Source: Clostridia bacterium
GTDB taxonomy: Bacteria; Bacillota; Clostridia; Christensenellales; Aristaeellaceae
Assembly (NCBI GenBank): GCA_030526225.1
Contig: JAUNDF010000010.1
Span: 1 to 32,000 of the forward strand
Length of the DNA: 32,000 nt
Direction: 5' to 3'
The stretch's first letter is position 1, and the number at the start of each line of letters is the position of its first letter. Under the pieces are notes generated by a model. That model searched no databases. It saw only the letters and a list, made by a program, of their open reading frames with translations, and was not told where the DNA came from. A program made the position numbers and the translations under genes. Shown here one piece after another: positions 1,295 to 25,091 of the stretch.

Positions 1295-1507
1295 ATGAAA
1301 ATCAGCGCACGCAATCAGCTGAAGGGCACCGTTGTGGCCATCGAAGAGGGTGCCGTGAACGGCATCGTCAAGATTGACATCGGCGCCGGCAACGTCATCA
1401 GCTCCACCATCTCCATGGTCTCCATCAAGGAACTGGGCCTGGAGGTCGGCAAGACTGCTTATGCCATCGTGAAGGCTACTTCCGTGATGGTCGGCGTGGA
1501 TGACTGA
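1295..1507 (+). CDS. mop: Molybdopterin-binding protein Mop (single TOBE/Mop domain, 70 aa)
   Basis: MKISARNQLKGTVVAIEEGAVNG...AIVKATSVMVGV is the typical Mop/TOBE sequence. RBS aaaaggag at 1276-1283. Stop TGA. Confidence 0.85.
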   Translation: MKISARNQLKGTVVAIEEGAVNGIVKIDIGAGNVISSTISMVSIKELGLEVGKTAYAIVKATSVMVGVDD

Positions 1508-1542
1508 TTCATGAAGGCTTGAGGCTCCGCAACGCCTCGGAG

Positions 1543-1575
1543 GACTGCTCTCGGGAATGAGGGCAGTCTTTTTTA
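1543..1575 (+). terminator. Rho-independent terminator after mop
   Basis: Stem gactgc...gcagtc followed by tttttt (1569-1574). The GC-rich to AT-rich composition break lies immediately downstream. Confidence 0.7.
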
Positions 1576-1747
1576 TTGTGATATTTGATTTGTCTAGTAT
1601 AAGTTTTTAAGAAGCAGAATTATTGATTGATAAACAAAAGGTTTATACAGTCCAATAGATGTTGGAGTGAAAGTGTTTTACTTTTGTAAATTAATATGAT
1701 ATTATATTAATAAATAAACAAGTAATTGCGTTAAGGAGAGAGAAATA

Positions 1748-3100
1748 ATGAAAAAACATCTCATCGCAACATGTACAATTGTAGTTTTCTCCATCCTGAT
1801 ATTGTCTTCCGTTTGTTTAGCAGACAATGTTGTTAAAGCGTCATTCGTTCATAATGGAATGGAGTTTAAACTATTTTAGAGTGGAACAGCAGAACTTGTA
1901 AAAGTTCGAGATACGCGGTGCGTTAATTTTGAAATACCATCAACAGTAGAAGGATATCTTGTTACAACTATAAATAGCGCTGCTTTTTCAGATTGTAAAT
2001 CATTGGATATATTAATTATTCCGGATTCGGTAAGTTAGATAAATGGAAATCCGTTTGTTGACTGCAAGAATGTTCGATTTAGCATATCCGCACAACATCC
2101 TGCGCTTGCTGTTATCGATGGCGTTTTATTCTCAAAACCGGATAAAAGACTGATTTCGTATCCGGCATGGAAAGATAATAAAACATATGAAGTGCCGGAT
2201 GGAATTGTGACAATTGGTGATTGGGCTTTTGCTTATAATGAAAGATTATCAAGCATTATTCTGCCTAATACTGTAAAAACAATTGGAGAAAAGGCATTCA
2301 TATTTTGCAATAGACTATCTAAGATTAATCTGCCAGAGAGCGTAGAAACCATTGGGATAAATCCATTTTATGGATGCAACAAAGTTGATGTTAAAATAAA
2401 TAGCAAACAAGAGCACTATCTTGTGAAGAGTGGAGTGCTTATTTCAAAAAAAGATAGCAGAATGATTAGCTATCTGCTAGGTTCAACAAAAAAGTCTTAT
2501 TCCATACCTAAAAATGTTGAAGTTATTGGCGAGTATGCATTTTCTTGCAATGGTGACTTAAAGTCGATAGAAATGCCTAATAGCGTTAAAAAAATCTGTA
2601 AAGGTGCTTTTTTGGGATGCTATGATCTTCAAACGATTCGTCTTTCTGCTAACATCGAAATCATTGAAGAATAGCTTTTTTATAGCTGTCGTGAACTGAA
2701 AAGAATTGAAATTCCTCAAGGTGTGAAGGCGATTGGGAAAAGTGCGTTTGAAAATTGTGTATACCTCATAAGCGTAAAAATGCCAAATAGCTTAATATAG
2801 ATAGGAGATAGAGCCTTTGCTAACTGTAGTACCTTAACAAGTGTGAACGTTCCGTGCAATGTTACTACTATTGGATGGCGCGCATTTGAACATTGTACAA
2901 ATTTGGAAGAAATAATGATTCCTAAGAGCGTAAATAAAATAGCCTTCGATGCTTTTAAATATTGCGATAAAATAGTTGTGTATGTATAGCCTGATAGTTA
3001 TGCAGAATATGTCTTGCCACTTTCAGGTATACCTACCAACTATAAGGACACTGAAGTCCCTTTGACGAACTCAAGTGACTTTGGATGGCTTAAATAGTAA
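1748..3100 (+). CDS. Secreted BspA-type leucine-rich-repeat protein (450 codons) containing six in-frame TAG codons. It would be a pseudogene under the standard code.
   Basis: ATG at 1748 with RBS aaggagag. Signal peptide MKKHLIATCTIVVFSILILSSVCLA. About 12 repeats of IPxSVxxIGxxAFxxCxxL. I translated the single frame 1748-3100: the only interruptions are TAG at 1877, 2036, 2672, 2798, 2987 and 3095, and the frame ends at TAA 3098-3100. There are no frameshifts. GC is roughly 33 percent by eye. Confidence 0.6.
1877..1879 (+). other. In-frame TAG (candidate sense codon) in the LRR gene
   Basis: Context ...GMEFKLF[TAG]SGTAELV. In frame with ATG 1748 (offset 129). Confidence 0.55.
2036..2038 (+). 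other. In-frame TAG in the LRR gene
   Basis: IPDSVS[TAG]INGNPF aligns with LPESVETIGINPF of a sister repeat. Confidence 0.55.
2672..2674 (+). other. In-frame TAG in the LRR gene
   Basis: NIEIIEE[TAG]LFYSCRELKRIEIP. The repeat register continues across the codon. Confidence 0.55.
2798..2800 (+). other. In-frame TAG in the LRR gene
   Basis: MPNSLI[TAG]IGDRAFANC aligns with MPNSVKKICKGAFLGC. Confidence 0.55.
2987..2989 (+). other. In-frame TAG in the LRR gene
   Basis: Context KIVVYV[TAG]PDSYAEYV. Confidence 0.5.
3095..3097 (+). other. In-frame TAG immediately preceding the TAA of the LRR gene
   Basis: ...GWLK[TAG][TAA]. It is either a tandem stop or a final sense codon before the true TAA stop. 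Confidence 0.35.
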
Positions 3101-3129
3101 ATAATTGACCGAAATTTATATAAAACCCC

Positions 3130-3158
3130 TTGCATTCCCCGCTCACTTATGCTACAAT
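3130..3158 (+). promoter_or_regulatory. Candidate sigma-A promoter (extended -10) for the BFD/Dabb pair
   Basis: TTGCAT (3130-3135), 17-nt spacer ending in TGc, TACAAT (3153-3158). Confidence 0.5.
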
Positions 3159-5414: not shown

Positions 5415-6101
5415 TTACTTGACGAAGAAAAGCTCAATGCCCATCAGCTCGCAGCGGGCCATGCCGTCTGCCAGCAGCTGGATGCCGTAGGTCATGGTTT
5501 CGTCGCCGACGGACACGGTCTTGGTCAGTTCGCCGTCCTTCAGCTCGTAGGCGCCGTCATCGTTGCCCATCATGGTGACATTGCCGTTGTCGATGACCAT
5601 GGTCATGTCTTCGCCGAACATGTCCTTCAGCTCAGCGGGGTCGGCCGTGGCCAGATCGATATACATGCCGCCAAAGCCCATCTTGCACATGGTCCAGGTG
5701 CCGTTGAAGGCGGTGATGTCATCGGTGCTTACCTTTTCGGCAGGCACGAAAGCGGCGGCGGGGGGCTCGTGGGTGAAAATCAGGGAAGTGCCTTCCTCTT
5801 CCATGACAAGGGTATCGCCGTCAACGGTGAATTCCTGTACGGAATCGCCGATGGTCACGGTTACCTTGCCGTCAGCCTCGGCCCAGCTGCAGTCGGCAGA
5901 TTCGCCCATGACGGTGGCGGCACCGGTGCCGTCTTCCTTCAGGTCAAAGGACATTTCCATGCCCAGGTCACCCGGGTTCATGGCTGCACCGGAAGCACTG
6001 ATGGTGTTGAGATACCATACGCCGGGAACGCCCTCAGCCACGGCAGCCACAGTGCACAGCAGCATCATAACGGCCAGCAGAACAGATACAAGCTTCTTCA
6101 T
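5415..6101 (-). CDS. Secreted hypothetical protein with two internal lipocalin-like repeats
   Basis: The start was moved to the internal MKKLVSVLLAVMMLLCTVAAVAEG signal peptide (ATG at 6099-6101 on -, with aaggagg upstream). Stop TAA. No family was recognised with confidence. Confidence 0.65.
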   Translation of the reverse strand: MKKLVSVLLAVMMLLCTVAAVAEGVPGVWYLNTISASGAAMNPGDLGMEMSFDLKEDGTGAATVMGESADCSWAEADGKVTVTIGDSVQEFTVDGDTLVMEEEGTSLIFTHEPPAAAFVPAEKVSTDDITAFNGTWTMCKMGFGGMYIDLATADPAELKDMFGEDMTMVIDNGNVTMMGNDDGAYELKDGELTKTVSVGDETMTYGIQLLADGMARCELMGIELFFVK

Positions 6102-6290
6102 TGTGTTTTCCTCCTTCACAGGTTGGATGATATCAATCAAGCCTTTTTCAGGCCGTGATTCGGAGAATATGGTTTGATTGGTTGATTTTTCCATTCGCTT
6201 TCGGTATATTGATTATAGCAGAGAAAACGACAGTTCACCAGTGCAATAATGGAGTGAATATCAACCGGATACAACAAAGGAGGGATTCCC

Positions 6291-7178
6291 GTGAAATTCA
6301 GAAAAGCATTGTCGATGCTTTTGGCTATGCTGATGCTGGCCTGCGCCCTGCCCGCGATGGCAGACACCCCCCTGGCGGATTGCTTTGATGCCCAGCAGAC
6401 GCTGCTGTTTTCCACCACCAACGTGGCCCTGCAGGTGGATGCGGAATTCGCGCTGGATGACGTGGCCTTCAAGCATGCAACACTCACCCACCGGCAGGAC
6501 CTGAACGATTCCGTGCGGGAGCTGGTGATGGAAACGCCCATGAAGGACGGCACCACCCTGCGCAGCGGCTTTACGGTGGTGACCTTCGCCTCCGAGACCA
6601 CCGCCTATGAGAGCGGCTTCATCGTCCGGCAGTACGAAACCTATCCGGGCAAGTTCTCCATCCTGCGGCCGCGGATTTGGTCCGATGCGCTTTTGCCGGT
6701 GCTTCGGGCAGCCGTCAAGCAAATGGAAGCATCATTGGGGGACGGCGTACAGGTCACGGTCAGGAGCGACGGCAGCCGGGTCATCCATGTGGAGGTCGGG
6801 GAAAAGGATGTGCCGGAGACCATGAACGGTCTTGTGACCCTGCTGGCCCTGCATGCGGCGGAAAAGTACACCGGCACCAGCGTGATGACCATGTCCTCCG
6901 CCATCATGCCGGAGATGAGCAGCTTTGCCACCATTGCCGACGGGCTGGTGTACTGCACCAAGTCTCTGCGAATCATCTCTGCCGCGGGAGACATCACCCT
7001 TGATGAATACGGCAATCTGACCGAATGCAAGGGCAATGTACTGCTGCTTTTGCAGGAGAAAAACGGCATGCTTCACGAGCTGTCCGTCACCTTTACAGAA
7101 ACGGCGGATGAGTACGGCTTTGTCAGCATTCCCCGGGATAATCCGGCAAAATACAACACATGGTTTCCGGCAGATTAA
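6291..7178 (+). CDS. Secreted hypothetical protein
   Basis: GTG start after aaaggaggg. Signal peptide MKFRKALSMLLAMLMLACALPAMA. The ORF has the coding-like composition of its neighbours. Stop TAA. Confidence 0.65.
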   Translation: MKFRKALSMLLAMLMLACALPAMADTPLADCFDAQQTLLFSTTNVALQVDAEFALDDVAFKHATLTHRQDLNDSVRELVMETPMKDGTTLRSGFTVVTFASETTAYESGFIVRQYETYPGKFSILRPRIWSDALLPVLRAAVKQMEASLGDGVQVTVRSDGSRVIHVEVGEKDVPETMNGLVTLLALHAAEKYTGTSVMTMSSAIMPEMSSFATIADGLVYCTKSLRIISAAGDITLDEYGNLTECKGNVLLLLQEKNGMLHELSVTFTETADEYGFVSIPRDNPAKYNTWFPAD

Positions 7179-10108: not shown

Positions 10109-10136
10109 TTGCAATTGCGGGGAATCATGGTATAAT
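10109..10136 (+). promoter_or_regulatory. Candidate sigma-A promoter (extended -10) for recD2
   Basis: TTGCAA (10109-10114), 16-nt spacer ending in TGg, TATAAT (10131-10136). Confidence 0.5.
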
Positions 10137-10171
10137 GCGGAACAGATTTTACGAAAAAGGAGGCTGCCGCC

Positions 10172-12424
10172 TTGGAGCATGTGTAGGCCGGTGTCACCGG
10201 GACCATCTATCGCAATGAGGACAACGGGTATACTATCCTGACTGCCCGGGCCGGGCGCAGCGAAATCACCGTGGTGGGGACGCTCCCTGCCCTGTCCCCG
10301 GGGGAGCAGTGCGTGTTCCATGGCGACTGGGTGGAGCATCCGCAGTATGGGCGGCAGCTGAAGTGCACGGGCTGTGAAATCAAAAAGCCCACCACCCTGC
10401 TGGGCATTGAGCGGTATCTGGGCTCGGGGCTGATTCGCGGCGTGGGCCCTTCCACCGCCAAGCAGATTGTGGAAACCTTCGGCGAGGAAACGCTGACCAT
10501 CCTCAGCGAGCATCCGGAGCGGCTGCAGGAGGTCCCCGGCATGGGGCGCAAGCGCTGGCGGGTGATTGCGGAAAACTTTCAGGAGCAGAACGCCATGCGG
10601 GAATCCATGGTGTTTCTGCAGTCCTACGGCATTTCCCCCAACCTGTCGGTAAAAATCAGCCGGCTGTACGGCGACAGGACCGCCGATGTGATTAAAAACA
10701 ACCCCTACCGCCTTTGCGAGGATTTGGAAGGCGTGGGCTTTCAGACGGCGGACCGCATCGGCATGGCCATCGGCATTGCCGCGGACAGCGAGTTCCGCAT
10801 CCAGTCGGCGCTGAAGTACATGCTGCGGGAGGCCTCCGTCTCCATGGGCCATGTGTATCTGCCCCTGCGGGAGCTGGTAACGAAAACCGCCCAGCTGCTG
10901 CGCACGGAGGAGGCGCTGGTATCCCGGCAGGTGAAAACGCTGATGCTGCGGCGGGACATCATCTGCAAGCAGGAGGAGGGCGAGGAGGACATCCGCGTGT
11001 ATCTCGCCGCCTTTGACAGCGCCGAGAGCGAGGTGGCCAAGCGCCTGTGCGAGCTGATTGCCTCCCTTGCCCGGGAAGAAAACCCCCAGGCGGAGCAGGA
11101 CATCGACCGGTTTGAAAAGCGCCACGGCATCCACTTTTCCGCCCAGCAGAGAAAGGCCATCACCATGGCCATGGAGATGGCCCTGAAAAACCAGATCGTG
11201 GTGATTACCGGCGGCCCCGGCACCGGCAAAACAACGATTATCAACTGCATCATCTCCCTGCTTTCGCGCGATGGGGAGGTGAAGCTGTGCGCCCCCACCG
11301 GCCGCGCCGCCAAGCGCATGACATAGGCCACCGGCGTGGAGTCGAAGACCATCCACCGCCTGCTGGAATACGGCGGGGACGACGGCGCCTTTGCCCGGGA
11401 TCAGGATAACCCCATCGAGGGCGACTGCGTGATTGTGGACGAGACCTCCATGGTGGATTTGATGCTGATGCGCTCCCTGCTGCGGGCCATTGAGCCGGGG
11501 ACAAAGCTGATTCTGGTGGGCGATGCCGACCAGCTGCCCAGCGTGGGCGCGGGCAATGTGCTGGGGGATATCCTCGACAGCGGCATTGTGCCTGTGTGCC
11601 GCCTGACGGACATCTACCGGCAGGATGAACAGAGCCGCATTGTGGTCAATGCCCACCGCATCAACCGCGGAGAAATGCCCCTGCTCAACGAAAAGGGCAC
11701 GGATTTCTTCTTCGAGCGCAAGGATTCCTTTGCCCAGACGGCCCAGACCATTGTGCAGCTGATGACCAAACGGCTGCCCGCGTTTTTGAAATTCCCGGAG
11801 GATGAAACTGCGGACCGCGCCGTCCGGAGCATACAGGTGCTGGCACCGGCGAAAAAGGGCGAGTGCGGCGTTCTGGTGCTCAACACCATGCTGCAGGAAG
11901 CCCTCAATCCCCCCGCGGCGGACAAGCCGTTTATCAAATACGGCGAAACCATCTTCCGCCTTGGGGACAAGGTGATGCAGACCAAAAACGACTACCAGAT
12001 TGAGTGGCGCAAGGAAAGCCGCCTTGGCTGGGAGGACGGCAAGGGCGTGTTCAACGGCGACGTGGGCTACATCACTGCGGTGGATGAGGAGGAGCACTGC
12101 CTCACGGTCCTCTTTGATGAGGAAAAGGAAGTGGTGTACCAGTCCGCTCAGCTGGAAAATCTGGATCTGGCCTACTGCCTGTCGGTGCACAAGAGCCAGG
12201 GCAGCGAGTTCCCGGTGGTGATTATGCCCGTGGTGGGCGGCTCCAGCATGCTTTTGACCAGAAACCTGTTCTACACCGCCCTGACCCGTGCGCGGAGTCT
12301 GGTGGTGCTGGTGGGCCGGGAGGAAATCATCCGGCAGATGACGCAGAACAATCACATTCAGAAGCGGTACACCTCTCTGGCAGGGCGGCTGCGCATGATG
12401 GGTGCGCTGCTGCCCAAAGAGTGA
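10172..12424 (+). CDS. recD2: RecD2-type ATP-dependent DNA helicase (750 codons) with two in-frame TAG codons
   Basis: TTG 10172 lies 9 nt after aaaaaggagg. The N-terminal GTIYRNEDNGYTIL motif lies between TAG 10184 and the first standard-code start. HhH region, Walker A ITGGPGTGKTT, APTGRAAKRMT[TAG]ATGVESKTIHRLL, and helicase motifs through SVHKSQGSEF. ORFs 10271..11326 and 11336..12424 share one frame. Stop TGA. Confidence 0.8.
10184..10186 (+). other. In-frame TAG (candidate sense codon), recD2 codon 5
   Basis: ttg gag cat gtg TAG gcc ggt gtc acc ggg acc atc tat cgc aat gag gac aac ggg. The conserved N-terminal peptide follows it. Confidence 0.55.
11324..11326 (+). other. In-frame TAG in recD2, at a position that is Glu in RecD2 homologs as I recall them
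   Basis: GRAAKRMT[TAG]ATGVESKTIHRLL, compared with the family pattern GRAAKR(L/M)(S/T)E.TG..A.TIHRLL recalled from memory. Confidence 0.65.
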
Positions 12425-16020: not shown

Positions 16021-16419
16021 ATGGCGCGGGAAAACCGCATCACCCTGTGTCTGCCGGGGCAGGCCGATCATTCACTGGTGCTTCGCACCATGGTAGGCGG
16101 CGTGGCCTATCTGTATGACCTGAGCGTGGATGACATGGATGATCTTCGCGCCGCCGCGGATGAGGCCTTCGACTGCCTGCTGCATCAGGGCAGCACGGTG
16201 GAAAGCATCACCACCGACATTCTCCGGGAGGATGGCCGCGTATCAGCATTGCTGACGGCTGCCTTCGGGGAAAAGCAAACATCCGCCCCCGGCGAAGAGG
16301 AGAACGAAATCTCGCTGGCGGTACTGAAAACCATCATGCCCGATGTACAGCTGACCGTGGACGGGGAGGGCCGGATTGCGGCCATCCGCCTGACGCTTTC
16401 CACCGGGAGGGCATCATGA
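16021..16419 (+). CDS. Small SpoIIAB/RsbW-like anti-sigma-factor-like protein with a degenerate ATPase N-box
   Basis: ATG 16021 lies 8 nt after GGGAGG. AADEAFDCLLHQG resembles the anti-sigma kinase box E-A-x-x-N-A-x-x-H-G, but Cys replaces the Asn. The stop overlaps the sigma-factor start (ATGA). Confidence 0.45.
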   Translation: MARENRITLCLPGQADHSLVLRTMVGGVAYLYDLSVDDMDDLRAAADEAFDCLLHQGSTVESITTDILREDGRVSALLTAAFGEKQTSAPGEEENEISLAVLKTIMPDVQLTVDGEGRIAAIRLTLSTGRAS

Positions 16420-17144
16420 TGGAAGAAGACATCAATGCCCTGCTGGCAGGGTATGCCCGTGCACCGGAGCCGGAGACGCTGAACCGGCTGACGGAGCATT
16501 TTCTGCCCCTGTCGCGGCAGGTGGCGGCCAAATTCTATGGGCGCGGTGCCGAAATGGAGGATTTGCGGCAGGTGGCAGCCATGGCGCTGATGAACGCCAT
16601 CAAACGCTTCGACCCTGACAAGGGGGTCAAGTTTACCACCTTCGCCGTTACCACCATGGCGGGTGAGGTGCGCAACCACCTGCGGGACAAGGCCGCGCTC
16701 ATTCGCCCCTCCCGTGATTTGCGGGAAAAGGCGGCGCAGGTGAACAAAATCACCGACCGGCTGGCCCAGCAGCTGCTGCGGGAGCCTACCGTGCGTGAAA
16801 TTGCCGGCGAAATGAACATCACCCCCGATGAGCTGCTGCACATCCTCGACAGCCGGGAAAAGCTGGAGGTTGCCTCCCTGAACGAAATCTCCGGGGAGGA
16901 TGACCGCGCCCTTGAGGAGCGGCTTGGTCAGACCGACGGCGGCTACGAGGCCGTGGAGCAGCGGGACATGTGGCAGTGGATTATGCGCCAGCTGACCGGG
17001 CAGGAGCAATTGCTGGTCCGGCTGCGTTATGTATAGCGGATGGGTCAGCGGGAGTGCGCCGCCAGAATGAACCTGTCGCAAATGCAGGTCAGCCGCATGG
17101 AGCGGCGCATGCTGGCGCGCATCCGCAGCAAAATGACATCATAA
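16416..17144 (+). CDS. Group-3 sigma-70 family factor (SigF/SigG/SigB-like, 242 aa) with one in-frame TAG before region 4.2
   Basis: Region 2 (DLRQVAAMALMNAIKRFDPDKGVKFTTFAVTTMAGEVRNHLRD), region 3, then LLVRLRYV[TAG]RMGQRECAARMNLSQMQVSRMERRMLARIRSKMTS. The region 4.2 HTH is encoded only after the TAG. Stop TAA at 17142-17144. Confidence 0.8.
17034..17036 (+). other. In-frame TAG (candidate sense codon) in the sigma factor
   Basis: cgt tat gta TAG cgg atg ggt cag. The HTH follows in the same frame. Confidence 0.65.
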
Positions 17145-17174: not shown

Positions 17175-18392
17175 ATGTACAGAGAAACACCGCCGATGGC
17201 ACCGCAGCCGAGGAAGAAGCTGCATGCTGTGCAGATTGTCATCATCGTGGTGGCCGTGCTGTTTGCCCTGTGGTACCTGTACAAAACCCTGGTGCCGGCG
17301 GCAACGCCCTATGCCACCATACAGGCAGGCACCCTGGGTGCAAGATACTCCGGCGATGTGCTCATCGTCCGGGATGAGACCCCCTATGATGCCGAGGGCG
17401 TGAGCAGCATCGAGTATGTGGCGGAGGAGGGCAAGGTGGCCCGCAACCGCTCCACCATCTGCAATGTGTTCTCCACCGGTTATTCCACCAAGGAGACCAC
17501 CGCCCTGCAGAACTACCGCGACCAGATCAAGCAGTATCAGCTGCAGCTCATCGGCGAGGAAACCACCTACGATGCCCGCATGGAGCGGCTGGACAGCGAT
17601 GTTTTGTAGCTGGCCCGGGAATTCCGCGCCATGATTGCCGGTCAGCCCGGCAATTTGCTCAATCAGGAAACGCTGCTCAATGCCGCCATCGGCTCCCGTC
17701 AGCTGTATCTGAAGAAAAAGTACGGCTCCGACCAGCGCCTCAGCCGGTTGTATGACGACGAACAGAGCCAGCTGCAGCGCATTGCCAGCTGGACCAAGCA
17801 GTATACCGCCGCGGGCGAGACCATCGTCAGCTTTTATACCGACGGCTATGAATACGGCCTGACCGCCTCCAACTTCCGTGATTTTACCCCGCAATAGGTC
17901 CGGAAGATGATTGCCGGTCAAAAGCCGGAGCTGACCACGGCCCAAAAGGGCAAGACCACCATCTACCGCACCGTGCGTGACGGCGTGTGGTACGCGCTGA
18001 TGCTGGTGAAGGACTCCACATGGAATCCGGTGGAGGGCCAGACCTACGAGCTGAAGCTGGAGCGGGTGGAAAACACCCGTGTGCTGGCCACGGTGGAATC
18101 CTTTACAAGAAACGGCAATGAGCTGCTGGTGCGCCTTGTGGTGCATGACTCCGTGGAGCCGGTGCTGTACATGCGCACCTGTCAGGCAGAGCTGGGCGAT
18201 TATGTGCAGAGCCTGATGGTGCCCAAGCGCGCCATCTATACCCAGGACAACATGACCGGCGTGGTGGTGCTGGACGGTGCCAATCAGCTGTTTGTGCCGG
18301 TGAACATCCTTTTGGAGGACGGCGGCAATGTGTACATCTCCGCCATCACCCAGGGTCTGCTGTATGAAGGGCAGACCGTGATGCTGTTCTGA
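17175..18392 (+). CDS. HlyD-like membrane-anchored protein (405 codons) with two in-frame TAG codons
   Basis: N-terminal TM anchor (VQIVIIVVAVLFALWYLY). ORFs 17175..17609, 17631..17897 and 17907..18392 are in one frame, separated only by TAG codons. Beta-barrel-like C-terminus. The family call is from general resemblance only. Stop TGA. Confidence 0.6.
17607..17609 (+). other. In-frame TAG in the HlyD-like gene
   Basis: Context RLDSDVL[TAG]LAREFRAMIAG. Confidence 0.5.
17895..17897 (+). other. In-frame TAG in the HlyD-like gene
   Basis: Context NFRDFTPQ[TAG]VRKMIAGQKPEL. Confidence 0.5.
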
Positions 18393-20368: not shown

Positions 20369-20644
20369 ATGCTGCTGTTGATGCGCATTCTCCGCATGGC
20401 ACTGCTGGTGTATGAGCTGCTGCTCATCGCCTATGTGCTGCTCAACTGGCTCAAGCCCGCCGCCAACCGCTGGACGGAGCTGCTCCGCCGCGTGACCGAG
20501 CCGGTGCTCACGCCCCTTCGGGTGGCCATTGTTTCCCGGCTGCCGGCAAGGTATCAGCCCATTGACTGGTCCCCTGTGGCGGCACTTGCGATTTGTGAAA
20601 TCATCGGCTGGATTCTCGGCAGAATCGCCGCCATTTTCGCATGA
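20369..20644 (+). CDS. yggT: YggT/YlmG-family membrane protein
   Basis: 91 aa with two TM helices. VYELLLIAYVLLNWL...TEPVLTPLR is typical of YggT. The stop overlaps the ylmH start (ATGA). Confidence 0.85.
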   Translation: MLLLMRILRMALLVYELLLIAYVLLNWLKPAANRWTELLRRVTEPVLTPLRVAIVSRLPARYQPIDWSPVAALAICEIIGWILGRIAAIFA

Positions 20645-21390
20645 TTAAGGATACTGCACAGCAGCTGAAGCTGCGGCTGAATCAGCTGGCCCAGCGGGCC
20701 GACAGGCTGTACTGCGCTGTCCCCGGCCGCTTTCTGGCGGCAGAGGAGCAGGCCATGGCACAGGATGCCGCCCGGGATAACGGGGTGGATGTATCCTTTT
20801 GCGGCGGCTGGAGTGATGCATAGCGGGTGCAGGTGTGCTTTCATCCCTTCGGGGAGGAGCCGCTGTTTACCGCCCAATGGGTGGAAGCCAAATGGAACAG
20901 CCGCTTTTCCACCGCGGCCCACAGCGATTTGCTGGGGAGCCTGATGGCCCTTGGCATGGAGCGTGCCTTTCTGGGCGACATCATCGTTGAGGAAGGCCGG
21001 GCACTGGTCTGCGTGATGCCCGAGCTGGCGGCTCGTCTGCCGGTGGAATGGACAAGCGCGGGACGCACGCCCATCTGGGTATCGGTGCTGGGCAGCCCGC
21101 CTGAAATTGCCCCGCCTGAAGGGAAGCAGCTGCGCGACACAGTGCCGTCCCTGCGGCTGGACTGCGTGGTGGCAAGCGGCATGAAGCAATCCCGCACCAA
21201 AGCGGCATAGCTGATTCGTCAGGGGCTGGTGATGGTCAATCATCGCCCGTAGGAACGCTGTGACCGGCTGCTGCAGGAGGGCGCACTGGTATCCATCCGC
21301 CATTTCGGCAGAATCCGTCTGCTGGAGGTGGGGGAACCCACCCGCAAGGACCGGCTGCCCGTGGTGCTGGAAATATTCGCGAAGAAATAA
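20641..21390 (+). CDS. ylmH: YlmH-like S4-domain RNA-binding protein (249 codons) with three in-frame TAG codons
   Basis: GGWSDA[TAG]RVQV matches the YlmH GGY..AER motif. The S4 domain reads LRLDCVVASGMKQSRTKAA[TAG]LIRQGLVMVNHRP[TAG]ERCDRLLQEGALVSIRHFGRIRL. All segments share one frame. Stop TAA at 21388-21390. Confidence 0.75.
20821..20823 (+). other. In-frame TAG in ylmH at the conserved Glu of GGY..AER
   Basis: GGWSDA[TAG]RVQVCFHP, compared with B. subtilis YlmH GGYDRAERKRA (recalled from memory). Confidence 0.65.
21208..21210 (+). other. In-frame TAG in the ylmH S4 domain
   Basis: Context SRTKAA[TAG]LIRQGLVMVN. Confidence 0.6.
21250..21252 (+). other. In-frame TAG in the ylmH S4 domain
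   Basis: Context VNHRP[TAG]ERCDRLLQEGALVSIRHFGR. Confidence 0.6.
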
Positions 21391-22068: not shown

Positions 22069-23169
22069 ATGGCAGACAAGCAGCAGACAACCTGCCCCCG
22101 CGTGGATATCGGCGGTCAGGCAGTGATGGAAGGCGTGATGATGAAGGGCCCCGATGCCATCGCCATCACCGTCAGACGGCCCGATGGCTCCATGGCCGTG
22201 CGCTATGAGCCCTATGTGGCCCTGAGCAAAAAGCACAAGTGGATGGGCTGGCCCGTCATCCGCGGCGCCGTGAACATGGCCAACATGCTGGTCATGGGCA
22301 TGCAGACGCTGGAAACCTCCACCAAGATGCTGGGCATCATGGATGAGGAGCCCACCAAGTTTGAAAAATGGCTGGCAGAGAAGCTGGGCAAGGGCATCGA
22401 CAAGGTGGTCATGGGCATGGCCATGATTCTGGCCGTGATTCTGTCCGTGGGCCTGTTTATCCTTGTGCCCACCGCCGTGGAAAAGGGCATCATTGCCTGG
22501 ACCGGCTCCACCACCGCCGCAACGCTGGTGGGCGGCGTTGTGAAGATTCTGCTGCTCATCGGCTACATGATTTTCTGCGGCATGGTGCCCGATGTGCGCC
22601 GCACCTTCCAGTACCACGGTGCCGAGCACAAGACCGTGTACTGCCACGAGCATGACCTGCCCCTGACCCCCGAAAACGCCAAGGGCTTCACTACCCTGCA
22701 CCCCCGCTGCGGCACCGCATTTTTGCTGATTGTGTTCGTCATCTCCATTCTGATGACGCTGCTCATCGGCCGGGGCATCACCGTGTTTATCTGGCGGTTC
22801 CTGTTCCATCTGGCCATGCTGCCGGTGATTGCAGGCGTCAGCTACGAGGTGCTGAAGGGTCTGGCCCACAGCGACAGCAAGCTGGCCCGTGCGCTCCGCT
22901 GGCCCGGACTGCAGATGCAGCGCCTGACCACCCGCGAGCCCGACGAAAAGATGCTGGAATGCGCCATCGTTTCCATGAATGTGGCCCTGTACGGCCTGCC
23001 CAAAAATGCGCCCAAGAACCGGGACGGCTTCACCATCCTGCACAGCTACAAGGAATCCGAAAAGGGCTATGTGTTTGAAAAGCCCGAGGTGAAGCCGGTT
23101 GCGGAAGCAGCTGAAGCTGTTGCCGAAGAAGCAGATGAAGAAGCGCCTGTTCAGGAGCCCCAGGCATGA
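22069..23169 (+). CDS. DUF1385-family membrane protein (commonly a prmC neighbour)
   Basis: IGGQAVMEGVMMKG...YHGAEHKTV...HPRCGT are hallmarks of DUF1385. The stop overlaps the prmC start (ATGA). Confidence 0.85.
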   Translation: MADKQQTTCPRVDIGGQAVMEGVMMKGPDAIAITVRRPDGSMAVRYEPYVALSKKHKWMGWPVIRGAVNMANMLVMGMQTLETSTKMLGIMDEEPTKFEKWLAEKLGKGIDKVVMGMAMILAVILSVGLFILVPTAVEKGIIAWTGSTTAATLVGGVVKILLLIGYMIFCGMVPDVRRTFQYHGAEHKTVYCHEHDLPLTPENAKGFTTLHPRCGTAFLLIVFVISILMTLLIGRGITVFIWRFLFHLAMLPVIAGVSYEVLKGLAHSDSKLARALRWPGLQMQRLTTREPDEKMLECAIVSMNVALYGLPKNAPKNRDGFTILHSYKESEKGYVFEKPEVKPVAEAAEAVAEEADEEAPVQEPQA

Positions 23170-24008
23170 CACCCAGACAGCTGATTCGCGAAACGGCGAA
23201 GCAATTTCAGGCGGCGGGTGTGCCCGATGCCCTGCTGGATGCATCCCTGCTGCTGGCCCACCTGACCGGCATGGAGCCCATGGCCCTGCGGCTGGATGAG
23301 GATACACAGCTGGCGGAGGACATCCTCCGGCAATACGCACAGCTGGCCCGGCGCCGCTGTCAGCGCGAACCCTTGCAATATCTGACCGGGGAAGTTGTCT
23401 TCCTCGGTCGTGTTTTCCATGTGGACAGCCGCGTGCTGATTCCCCGGCCCGAAACGGAGCTGCTGGTGGAATTAGCCGCATCAGAGCTGAAAAAGCACGG
23501 TGCGGGTGCCAAGGCCCTTGACCTGTGCTGCGGCAGCGGCTGCATCGGCGTATCCCTTGCACTATAGGTGCCGGGGAGCGAGGTGCATCTGTCCGATTTA
23601 TCTGCCGATGCACTGGCGGTGACCGGCATCAACGCCGAAGCCCTTGCGGCAAAGGTACAGCTGCATCACGGCGATATGTTTGCGCCGCTGGAGGGTGAAC
23701 GGTTCCACGTGCTGGTGTCCAATCCGCCGTATATCCCCGCGGAGGATTGCCGTCAGCTGCAGGCAGAGGTCCTGCGGGAGCCCATGACCGCCCTTGACGG
23801 CGGCGAGGACGGGTACGATTTCTACCGCACCATCGCAAAGGAAGCGCCCCGTCATCTGCTGCCCGGCGGTGCCCTCTTTCTGGAGATCGGCTGGGATCAG
23901 GCCGAAGGGGTGTGCCGCCTGCTGAGGGAAGCCGGCATGGTGCAGGTGACAAGCCATCAGGACTACAACGGCATTAGCCGCATGGTGGAAGCCCACATGG
24001 CTGATTGA
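23166..24008 (+). CDS. prmC: Release-factor glutamine N5-methyltransferase PrmC/HemK (280 codons) with one in-frame TAG
   Basis: EPLQYLTGEVVFLGRVFHVDSRVLIPRPETE, SAM motif DLCCGSGCIGVSLAL[TAG]VPGSEVHLSDLS, and the catalytic NPPY (VSNPPYIP), which lies downstream of the TAG. ORFs 23166..23567 and 23568..24008 share one frame. Stop TGA. Confidence 0.8.
23565..23567 (+). other. In-frame TAG (candidate sense codon) in prmC
   Basis: gca cta TAG gtg ccg ggg. It aligns with the E of E. coli PrmC ALASERPDCEI (recalled from memory). Confidence 0.62.
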
Positions 24009-24038
24009 GTTTGAACGACGCAAAAGGATGAAGAAGCA

Positions 24039-25091
24039 ATGAAAACGCAAGTGCTGGGCCCCGCGCAGGAGAATCTGCAGGCCGCGGCTGAGCTGCTCCG
24101 AAGCGGGCAGCTGGTGGCCTTTCCTACGGAAACGGTGTACGGTCTGGGTGCCAATGCCTTTGACAAGGATGCGGTGCTGTCCATCTTTGCCGCCAAGGAC
24201 CGCCCTGCAGATAATCCCCTGATTGTGCACGTGTGGTGCCGGGAGCAGCTGAAGGACATCTGCGAGGTATCCGAAACGGCAGAAAAGCTGATGGATGCCT
24301 TCTGGCCCGGCCCGCTGACCATCCTGATGCCGCGGAAGGAATCCATCCCCCTGGAGGTGACCGCGGGTCTGCCCACGGTGGCGGTGCGCATGCCCTCCCA
24401 TCCGGTGGCGGCGGCACTGCTGAAGGCTTGCAATGTGCCCGTGGCGGCACCCAGCGCCAATCGCTCCGGCAAGCCCAGCCCCACCTCTGCACGGTATGTG
24501 TATCAGGATATGGATGGCCGCATCCCCATGATTATCGACGGCGGGGACTGCGATGTGGGCCTTGAGTCCACGGTGCTGGATATCGGCCACGGCAAGCCCT
24601 GCATCCTCCGTCCCGGCGGCGTGACCCGGGATATGCTGGAAAAAGTGCTGGGTGAGGTGGATGTGGCCGGCAGCGTACTGCGCCCCCTGCAGCAGGGCGA
24701 GGTGGCCCTGTCCCCCGGCATGCGCTACAAGCACTACGCCCCCAACGGTCAGGTGGTGCTGGTGGAAGGGGAGGAGCAGCAGGTGGTTGGGGCACTGCGC
24801 CGCTTGTGTGAAGAGGCCGCGCAAAACGGTCACAAGAGCTGTGTGATGTGCTTTACCGAGCATGCGGAACAGCTGGCGGATTGCCATCCCTTCGATCTGG
24901 GCAGCATCCATCGCCCGGAGGAGACCGCCCGCTGTCTGTTTGATACCCTGCGCCGGCTGGATGACGTGGGCATGGATGCCATCTTCAGCGAGGTACTGCC
25001 CCCCGAGGGTATCGGCCTTGCGGTGATGAACCGTCTGGGCCGCGCTGCCGGCTTCCATTCCGTGCAGGCGGAGGATATCCTGCGGGACTGA
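24039..25091 (+). CDS. tsaC: L-threonylcarbamoyladenylate synthase (TsaC/Sua5/YwlC type, with a Sua5 C-terminal domain)
   Basis: VAFPTETVYGLGANAFD, KDRPADNPLIVHV, PGPLTIL, APSANRSGKPSPT. Stop TGA. Confidence 0.9.
   Translation: MKTQVLGPAQENLQAAAELLRSGQLVAFPTETVYGLGANAFDKDAVLSIFAAKDRPADNPLIVHVWCREQLKDICEVSETAEKLMDAFWPGPLTILMPRKESIPLEVTAGLPTVAVRMPSHPVAAALLKACNVPVAAPSANRSGKPSPTSARYVYQDMDGRIPMIIDGGDCDVGLESTVLDIGHGKPCILRPGGVTRDMLEKVLGEVDVAGSVLRPLQQGEVALSPGMRYKHYAPNGQVVLVEGEEQQVVGALRRLCEEAAQNGHKSCVMCFTEHAEQLADCHPFDLGSIHRPEETARCLFDTLRRLDDVGMDAIFSEVLPPEGIGLAVMNRLGRAAGFHSVQAEDILRD

Follow-up and report, generated by a model that had tools for sequence, protein, structure and literature searches.

Release factor 1 (RF1) is the only factor that reads UAG, RF2 reading only UAA and UGA. 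According to Shulgina and Eddy (PMC8629427), all known changes of the genetic code in bacteria reassign UGA, and a paper of August 2026 still describes only UGA reassignments accompanied by RF2 loss in this domain (PMC13462651). No natural bacterial reassignment of UAG and no natural loss of RF1 is reported in the full-text literature we searched, where the combination of UAG reassignment and RF1 loss has so far been reached only by genome engineering. Here we describe a 32,000-nucleotide (nt) stretch of the genome of an uncultured Clostridia bacterium from the gut (contig JAUNDF010000010.1, positions 1 to 32,000; hereafter the window), in which prmC, encoding the release-factor glutamine methyltransferase, carries an in-frame TAG and is followed directly by tsaC, with no prfA, the gene for RF1, between the two. 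We favor, with a probability of roughly three in four, the explanation that the window represents a Christensenellales-like Clostridia lineage in which prfA was excised between prmC and tsaC and UAG became a sense codon, most likely for glutamate (Glu).

The first-pass annotation of this DNA had described prmC as interrupted by UAG, coupled to an upstream DUF1385 gene by an ATGA overlap and separated from tsaC by a gap of 30 nt, in a window without any RF1-like open reading frame (ORF), and all of these observations were borne out (Table 1). The stop codon of the DUF1385 gene overlaps the prmC start at positions 23166-23169, and prmC itself is translated in one frame, through a single TAG in the context …GVSLAL*VPGSEV… and up to a TGA terminator at 24006-24008. 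The protein read through the TAG consists of a PrmC_N domain (PF17827, E = 7e-19) and an S-adenosylmethionine-dependent MTS domain (PF05175, E = 2.7e-16), whose match, at residues 105-194, bridges the TAG position, and its catalytic NPPY motif is intact (VSNPPYIP); the ORF at 23166-24008 is thus a PrmC/HemK gene. A scan for the GGQ motif detected no RF1-like sequence in the window, and a tblastn search of the window with the RF1 proteins of nine relatives returned nothing better than E = 0.7.

To see what occupies this position in related genomes, we retrieved 160 loci around DUF1385 homologues, placed PrmC, RF1 and TsaC in each by tblastn, and considered as related loci the 143 with enough sequence past prmC. 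In 135 of the 143, prfA lay immediately 3' of prmC; the full order prmC-prfA-tsaC was seen in 88 loci, and in 47 more the contig ended after prmC-prfA. The closest DUF1385 relatives are labelled as Christensenellales/Christensenellaceae, Candidatus Limiplasma or unclassified Clostridia metagenome-assembled genomes (MAGs). Several MAGs named 'cleanbin' (L005, L007, L009 and L011) have the Clostridia locus under labels such as Alloprevotella, Bacteroidaceae, Anaerovoracaceae or Phocaeicola dorei, and look like mislabelled or chimeric bins. Judged by its sequence, the gene in the gap is a true prfA: it encodes a protein of about 350 amino acids with both the PxT and the GGQ motif, and in L084-type loci its alignment with E. 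coli RF1 reaches E = 2e-106, versus 1e-61 or weaker for RF2. A GGQ[HN]VN scan (3/80 loci) had suggested that relatives lack an adjacent prfA, a notion we rejected because RF1 of this clade carries GGQC[VI]N.

The synteny of the related loci indicates that the ancestral order in the clade is DUF1385-prmC-prfA-tsaC and that the window lost prfA from that slot, which supports the proposal of the first-pass annotation that the missing prfA is a possible trace of RF1 loss. The adjacency of prfA and prmC that it expected is present in this clade, in a corrected order, with prmC preceding prfA, unlike in E. coli and B. subtilis. Apart from the window, only two independent contigs from metagenomes pass directly from prmC to tsaC, L083 (R14__coassemble_417; 47 nt) and L144 (R28__coassemble_162; 35 nt). 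Both of these also carry in-frame TAGs, and no standard-code relative shares the order DUF1385-prmC-tsaC. Five further loci (L028, L061, L146, L148 and L149) have other genes in place of prfA after prmC, and tblastn with the RF1 of relatives detected no prfA remnant in any of the prfA-less loci. In L144, the sequence AGAAAGAAGGA upstream of tsaC resembles GAAAGAAGGAAC, found upstream of tsaC in several relatives, which fits a clean excision of prfA.

In the window, TAG behaves as a sense codon rather than as a terminator. Translating it with TAA and TGA alone as stops yielded TAG-containing ORFs for RecD2, a sigma-70 family factor, an HlyD_2 family protein and YlmH in addition to PrmC, and in all five the TAGs lie inside Pfam domain matches; nine such TAGs were counted, that of prmC and eight others, and eight of the nine are placed in Table 1. 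In YlmH, read-through is the only way to reach the S4 domain, which follows the second TAG. None of the five ORFs is broken by an in-frame TAA or TGA or by a frameshift. Seven TAG codons occur in the 12 confident genes of the window (4515 codons). When ORFs with coding-like codon usage were delimited by the standard stops, 12 ended in TAA, 11 in TGA and five in TAG, the last five matching the upstream pieces of TAG-split genes; no convincing TAG-terminated gene was found in the window, in a tally that comprises only about 28 ORFs. The long RecD2 ORF has a further TAG at 10184-10186, 16 codons from its beginning and shortly before the OB_YrrC domain match, which is either a tenth sense TAG or precedes the true start.

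Sense TAGs recurred where the prfA slot was empty. In L083, a TAG separates the N-terminal Rossmann segment of MurD from the remainder of the protein. L144 carries TAGs in TsaC, in a TetM/EF-G-like GTPase, in a helix-turn-helix protein and in a fourth ORF, and L149 carries them in a HAD-IIA hydrolase and a second ORF; all of these TAGs fall within domain matches. An empty prfA slot and sense TAGs thus co-occur in four lineages (the window, L083, L144 and L149). Among the prfA-bearing loci, a homology screen had initially returned hundreds of TAGs aligned to Q, E and K; those checked were antisense ORFs, in which the sense-strand leucine codons CTA, CTG, CTC and CTT are read as TAG, CAG, GAG and AAG, and we therefore added a coding score based on codon usage and re-screened the loci. 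Further internal TAGs examined in prfA-bearing loci proved to be junk frames, and an apparent recoding in L048 (35 internal X) an artefact of runs of N. The TAGs then remaining in conserved genes of prfA-bearing loci were true terminators, one TAG at a conserved tryptophan in L142 (1.8x coverage), which is probably an error, and one TAG in the prfA of L100.

After the antisense check, the L100 TAG was the only one in the prfA-bearing loci that still stood as a candidate sense codon within a genuine coding frame. It lies in prfA itself (5761-6834), at a Glu conserved in 66 homologues (…SIIM*IRGGAGGEE…), in one metagenome contig of an abundant human-gut species with an RF1 of the PITESNGKIQSS type, and could be a strain variant, the onset of prfA inactivation or a sequencing error.

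That the TAGs as a whole are damage or artefact, arising in pseudogenes of a decaying genome or from sequencing or assembly errors and unrelated to the missing prfA, is very improbable. The data set does include one probable error of this kind, in L142, and the window sequence is confirmed within a single sequencing run only: its DNA is 100% identical to Logan contigs of run SRR24915835 (TsaC and DivIVA look-ups), which probably stem from the same sample and are not an independent confirmation. Against such an origin, the genes are interrupted by TAG and never by TAA or TGA, without frameshifts, they are essential or conserved and have domain matches that span the TAGs, the TAGs fall preferentially at Glu columns, and the same combination of features is present in three independent metagenome contigs.

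The residue encoded by UAG was approached through alignment of the TAG sites with homologues. At the TAG column of PrmC, 98 of 147 relatives have Glu (58 as GAA, 40 as GAG) and a single one glutamine (Gln), and at the TAG site of TsaC in L144 Glu is found in 82/85 relatives. The TAG of the L144 GTPase corresponds to the Glu of the motif DTPGHxDFxxEVxRS in TetM, TetO and EF-G, as aligned with solved structures. In the same way, the RecD2 TAG at 11324-11326 aligns with Glu in the structures of D. radiodurans RecD2 and E. coli RecD, and the first YlmH TAG (20821-20823) with Glu in those of B. subtilis and S. pneumoniae YlmH. Reading UAG as glutamate is therefore the best interpretation of these alignments and most likely the correct one, with glutamine formally possible. 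We consider a different residue, be it glutamine, as in code-15 phages, or pyrrolysine, to be improbable. In favor of glutamine, TAG-to-Gln is a known phage code, and a single mutation of the CUG anticodon would give a tRNA-Gln(CUA); Gln often replaces Glu in proteins, and several TAG sites occupy variable columns. The near-absence of Gln from the PrmC column and the Glu of TsaC, EF-G, TetM and TetO speak against it, as does, for a phage origin of the code, the chromosomal gene content of the window. Pyrrolysine is likewise disfavored, with TAGs in housekeeping genes at Glu columns and neither pyl genes nor a methylamine methyltransferase context in the window.

Table 1. Features of the prmC locus and of the other TAG-containing genes in the window.
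Feature	Coordinates	Strand	Details
DUF1385 gene	22069..23169	+	PF07136, E = 8e-77; stop overlaps prmC start (ATGA)
prmC (release-factor glutamine methyltransferase)	23166..24008	+	280 codons, one in-frame TAG, TGA end
In-frame TAG codon of prmC	23565..23567	+	Aligned column Glu in 98/147 and Gln in 1/147 relatives
prmC-tsaC spacer, 30 nt	24009..24038		Slot of the ~1.05-kb prfA in relatives; no prfA remnant
tsaC/sua5 (threonylcarbamoyl-AMP synthase)	24039..25091	+	PF01300 and PF03481; identical to NCBI protein MDO4483377.1
RecD2 helicase ORF, uncertain start	10136..12424	+	In-frame TAG 11324-11326
Sigma-70 family factor	16416..17144	+	In-frame TAG 17034-17036, within region 4
HlyD_2 family protein	17175..18392	+	In-frame TAGs 17607-17609, 17895-17897
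ylmH	20641..21390	+	In-frame TAGs 20821-20823, 21208-21210, 21250-21252
BspA-type leucine-rich-repeat gene	1748..3100	+	TAGs at 1877, 2036, 2672, 2798, 2987, 3095

The leucine-rich-repeat gene listed last in Table 1 differs from the other TAG-containing genes in its setting. It sits downstream of a tRNA-Thr (825-900), in an island of 33-36% GC (1500-3150) that contrasts with the roughly 60% GC of the genome, and its six TAGs make up about 1.3% of its codons, roughly eight times the density elsewhere; it has no in-frame TAA or TGA, and its final TAG directly precedes a TAA. These properties suggest that the gene, or the island, was acquired from another source in which TAG is a sense codon. A phage search with the low-GC repeat protein returned only repeat-level similarity of 25-31%.

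The relatives that retain prfA fall into two groups by the codon-reading loop of their RF1. In the Limiplasma-like half of the loci, which is the more distant one, the loop is canonical (RVQRVP[STA]TE..GRIHTS); it is altered in the half that contains the window, where variants include PITESNGKIQSS, PVTDATGKRQTS, PVTDSTGKKQTS, HQVKRIPVTESNGRIQTS and CVKRVPVTESGGRIHTS, for example in L003 (11664-12935) and in the L084-type loci. The changes affect positions Q185, R195, I196, H197 and T198 of E. coli RF1, the substitutions in the half nearest the window being Q185K, R195K, I196R/K, H197Q and T198S. In dereplicated loci, TAG accounted for 32/200 stops (16%) with a canonical RF1 versus 8/395 (2%) with an altered one (p = 6e-10, Fisher's exact test), the GC content being equal in both groups. 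Since the TAG trinucleotide was avoided to a similar degree in the two groups (observed/expected 0.35 with canonical and 0.28 with altered RF1), this depletion is specific to stop codons. The TAGs that remain in genomes with an altered RF1 are real terminators, and UAG is thus still a stop there. In one such genome (L013, 11846-12934), prfA itself is terminated by TAG, a stop read by RF1 alone, which could serve autoregulation. The tetranucleotide CTAG is almost absent (observed/expected 0.01-0.05) throughout the clade and in the window, whatever the state of RF1.

In a bootstrapped neighbor-joining tree, all prfA-less loci fell within the TAG-poor clade. Three pairs were well supported, (L144, L149) and (L028, L061) at 100 and (L083, L146) at 98, and the window grouped with the last of these at only 22% support; because the backbone of the tree is unresolved, the prfA losses number between one and four.

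A relocated RF1 is the most serious competitor to loss, and we regard it as unlikely. Under this scenario RF1 would have been kept elsewhere in the genome, and UAG would be decoded ambiguously, with a suppressor tRNA competing against RF1, as for pyrrolysine in methanogens. The window is only part of the genome, the region does rearrange, as the differing gene order after prmC in L028, L061, L146, L148 and L149 illustrates, and the relatives with altered RF1 loops keep TAG as a rare true stop. However, the adjacency of prmC and tsaC in the window, L083 and L144, with spacers of 30-47 nt, fits a deletion better than a rearrangement, as does the persistence in L144 of AGAAAGAAGGA, still like the GAAAGAAGGAAC of relatives, upstream of tsaC. 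Ambiguous decoding is also difficult to reconcile with nine TAGs in five housekeeping genes and no convincing TAG terminator among about 28 ORFs.

Several observations weigh against a recoded lineage that has lost prfA. With 32 kb of the genome visible, prfA could sit elsewhere. The lineage was seen in one sample only: no exact match to the DUF1385 protein of the window was found, its closest DUF1385 relatives are 72-76% identical (GTDB species representatives and a metagenome collection), for TsaC the runner-up among 5.8 billion proteins shares 77% identity, and the collections of genomes, metagenomes and proteins yielded no relative closer than 74-77% identity. No tRNA with anticodon CUA was found in the window or in the seven prfA-less loci, including the sequence examined of L083, L144 and L149; the window has a single tRNA, tRNA-Thr(GGU), and the examined parts of those three loci contain no tRNA. 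Several TAG sites align with columns that vary (T and V in YlmH, L or E in MurD), so that the Glu assignment rests on about five informative sites. Finally, prfA does not follow prmC in L028, L061, L146 and L148, and no TAG, be it a stop or a sense codon, occurs in the 1-12 genes examined there, which means that missing adjacency alone is not proof of RF1 loss. RF1 may be absent from these four genomes and UAG without an assignment in them; two of the four, L028 and L061, represent their species in GTDB.

Loss of prfA with reassignment of UAG, which we continue to prefer, suggests the following course. UAG stops would first have become rare in the clade; prfA, by then dispensable, would have been deleted; and UAG would finally have been captured as a sense codon by a tRNA, presumably with the anticodon CUA, and have spread at Glu positions. 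If RF1 is absent from the whole genome, as the empty slot leads us to expect, no release factor for UAG would be left, because RF2 reads only UAA and UGA, and the tRNA would decode UAG without competition. Changes from GAG to TAG would then be tolerable at Glu positions of essential genes, prmC included. PrmC itself is required by RF2 for methylation of the glutamine in its GGQ motif, an established dependence, and would be retained because this methylation is still needed after the loss of RF1.

Taken more broadly, the family-level clade of gut Christensenellales-like bacteria to which the window belongs might constitute a living series of codon-capture stages, a view for and against which we see about even odds. 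Its first stage would be represented by the genomes in which RF1 carries Q185K, I196R/K, H197Q and T198S and the share of UAG among stops falls from 16% to 2%, its second by the outright deletion of prfA in one to four sublineages, some of them without any TAG, and its third by the at least four lineages that would have refilled UAG as a glutamate codon. As RF1 is intact in some relatives, altered in others and missing in still others, the sequence of steps in such a reassignment, by codon capture or through an ambiguous intermediate, would be open to direct testing.

If the proposed reading is correct, this would be the first natural reassignment of UAG in a bacterial chromosome, and the first natural bacterial code in which UAG specifies a standard amino acid and RF1 is missing. 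RF1 would be dispensable in the wild, and a new translation table would be needed. Current annotation splits such genes or calls them pseudogenes, which may depress completeness estimates and exclude the respective MAGs from reference sets. The decoding tRNA and its synthetase would be natural parts for amber-codon engineering.

Among eukaryotes, a UAR-to-Glu code is used by peritrich ciliates. Blastocrithidia has such a code as well (PMC12153298), with UAG meaning glutamate as proposed here, but these are nuclear codes that involve eRF1 alterations and cognate tRNA-Glu genes, and no dedicated release factor was lost. In archaea that read every TAG as pyrrolysine (bioRxiv 10.1101/2024.09.30.615893), UAG is likewise a sense codon genome-wide rather than at special sites; these organisms, however, belong to another domain of life, terminate with aRF1 and depend on pylTSBCD, whereas the TAGs described here fall at conserved Glu positions. 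The TAG-recoded gut phages (code 15, TAG to Gln; bioRxiv 10.1101/2021.08.26.457843) share with the window the in-frame TAGs in gut-associated sequence. Unlike theirs, the DNA of the window is chromosomal and carries genes for cell division, tRNA modification and metabolism, the TAGs align with Glu rather than Gln, and the release-factor gene of the host itself is missing from the locus. The engineered E. coli strains without RF1 (C321.deltaA and related; PMC6207430, PMC11903333) resemble the proposed state in that prfA is gone, UAG is freed and RF2 serves UAA and UGA; in those strains all TAG stops were replaced, whereas here the change would be natural, with UAG back in use as a sense codon of essential genes.

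The closest parallel is offered by the bacteria that combine UGA reassignment with RF2 loss (codes 4 and 25), namely Mycoplasmatales, Hodgkinia, Absconditabacteria/Gracilibacteria and Eggerthellaceae (PMC13462651). In these as in the lineage proposed here, a stop codon read by a single class-I release factor turns into a sense codon while this factor's own gene vanishes, the other release factor covers the two remaining stops, and the codon is already rarer as a stop in relatives. The present case differs in being the mirror image, with UAG as the codon and RF1 as the missing factor, in the residue, which would be Glu, and in its occurrence in gut Clostridia of about 60% GC rather than in AT-rich or reduced genomes.

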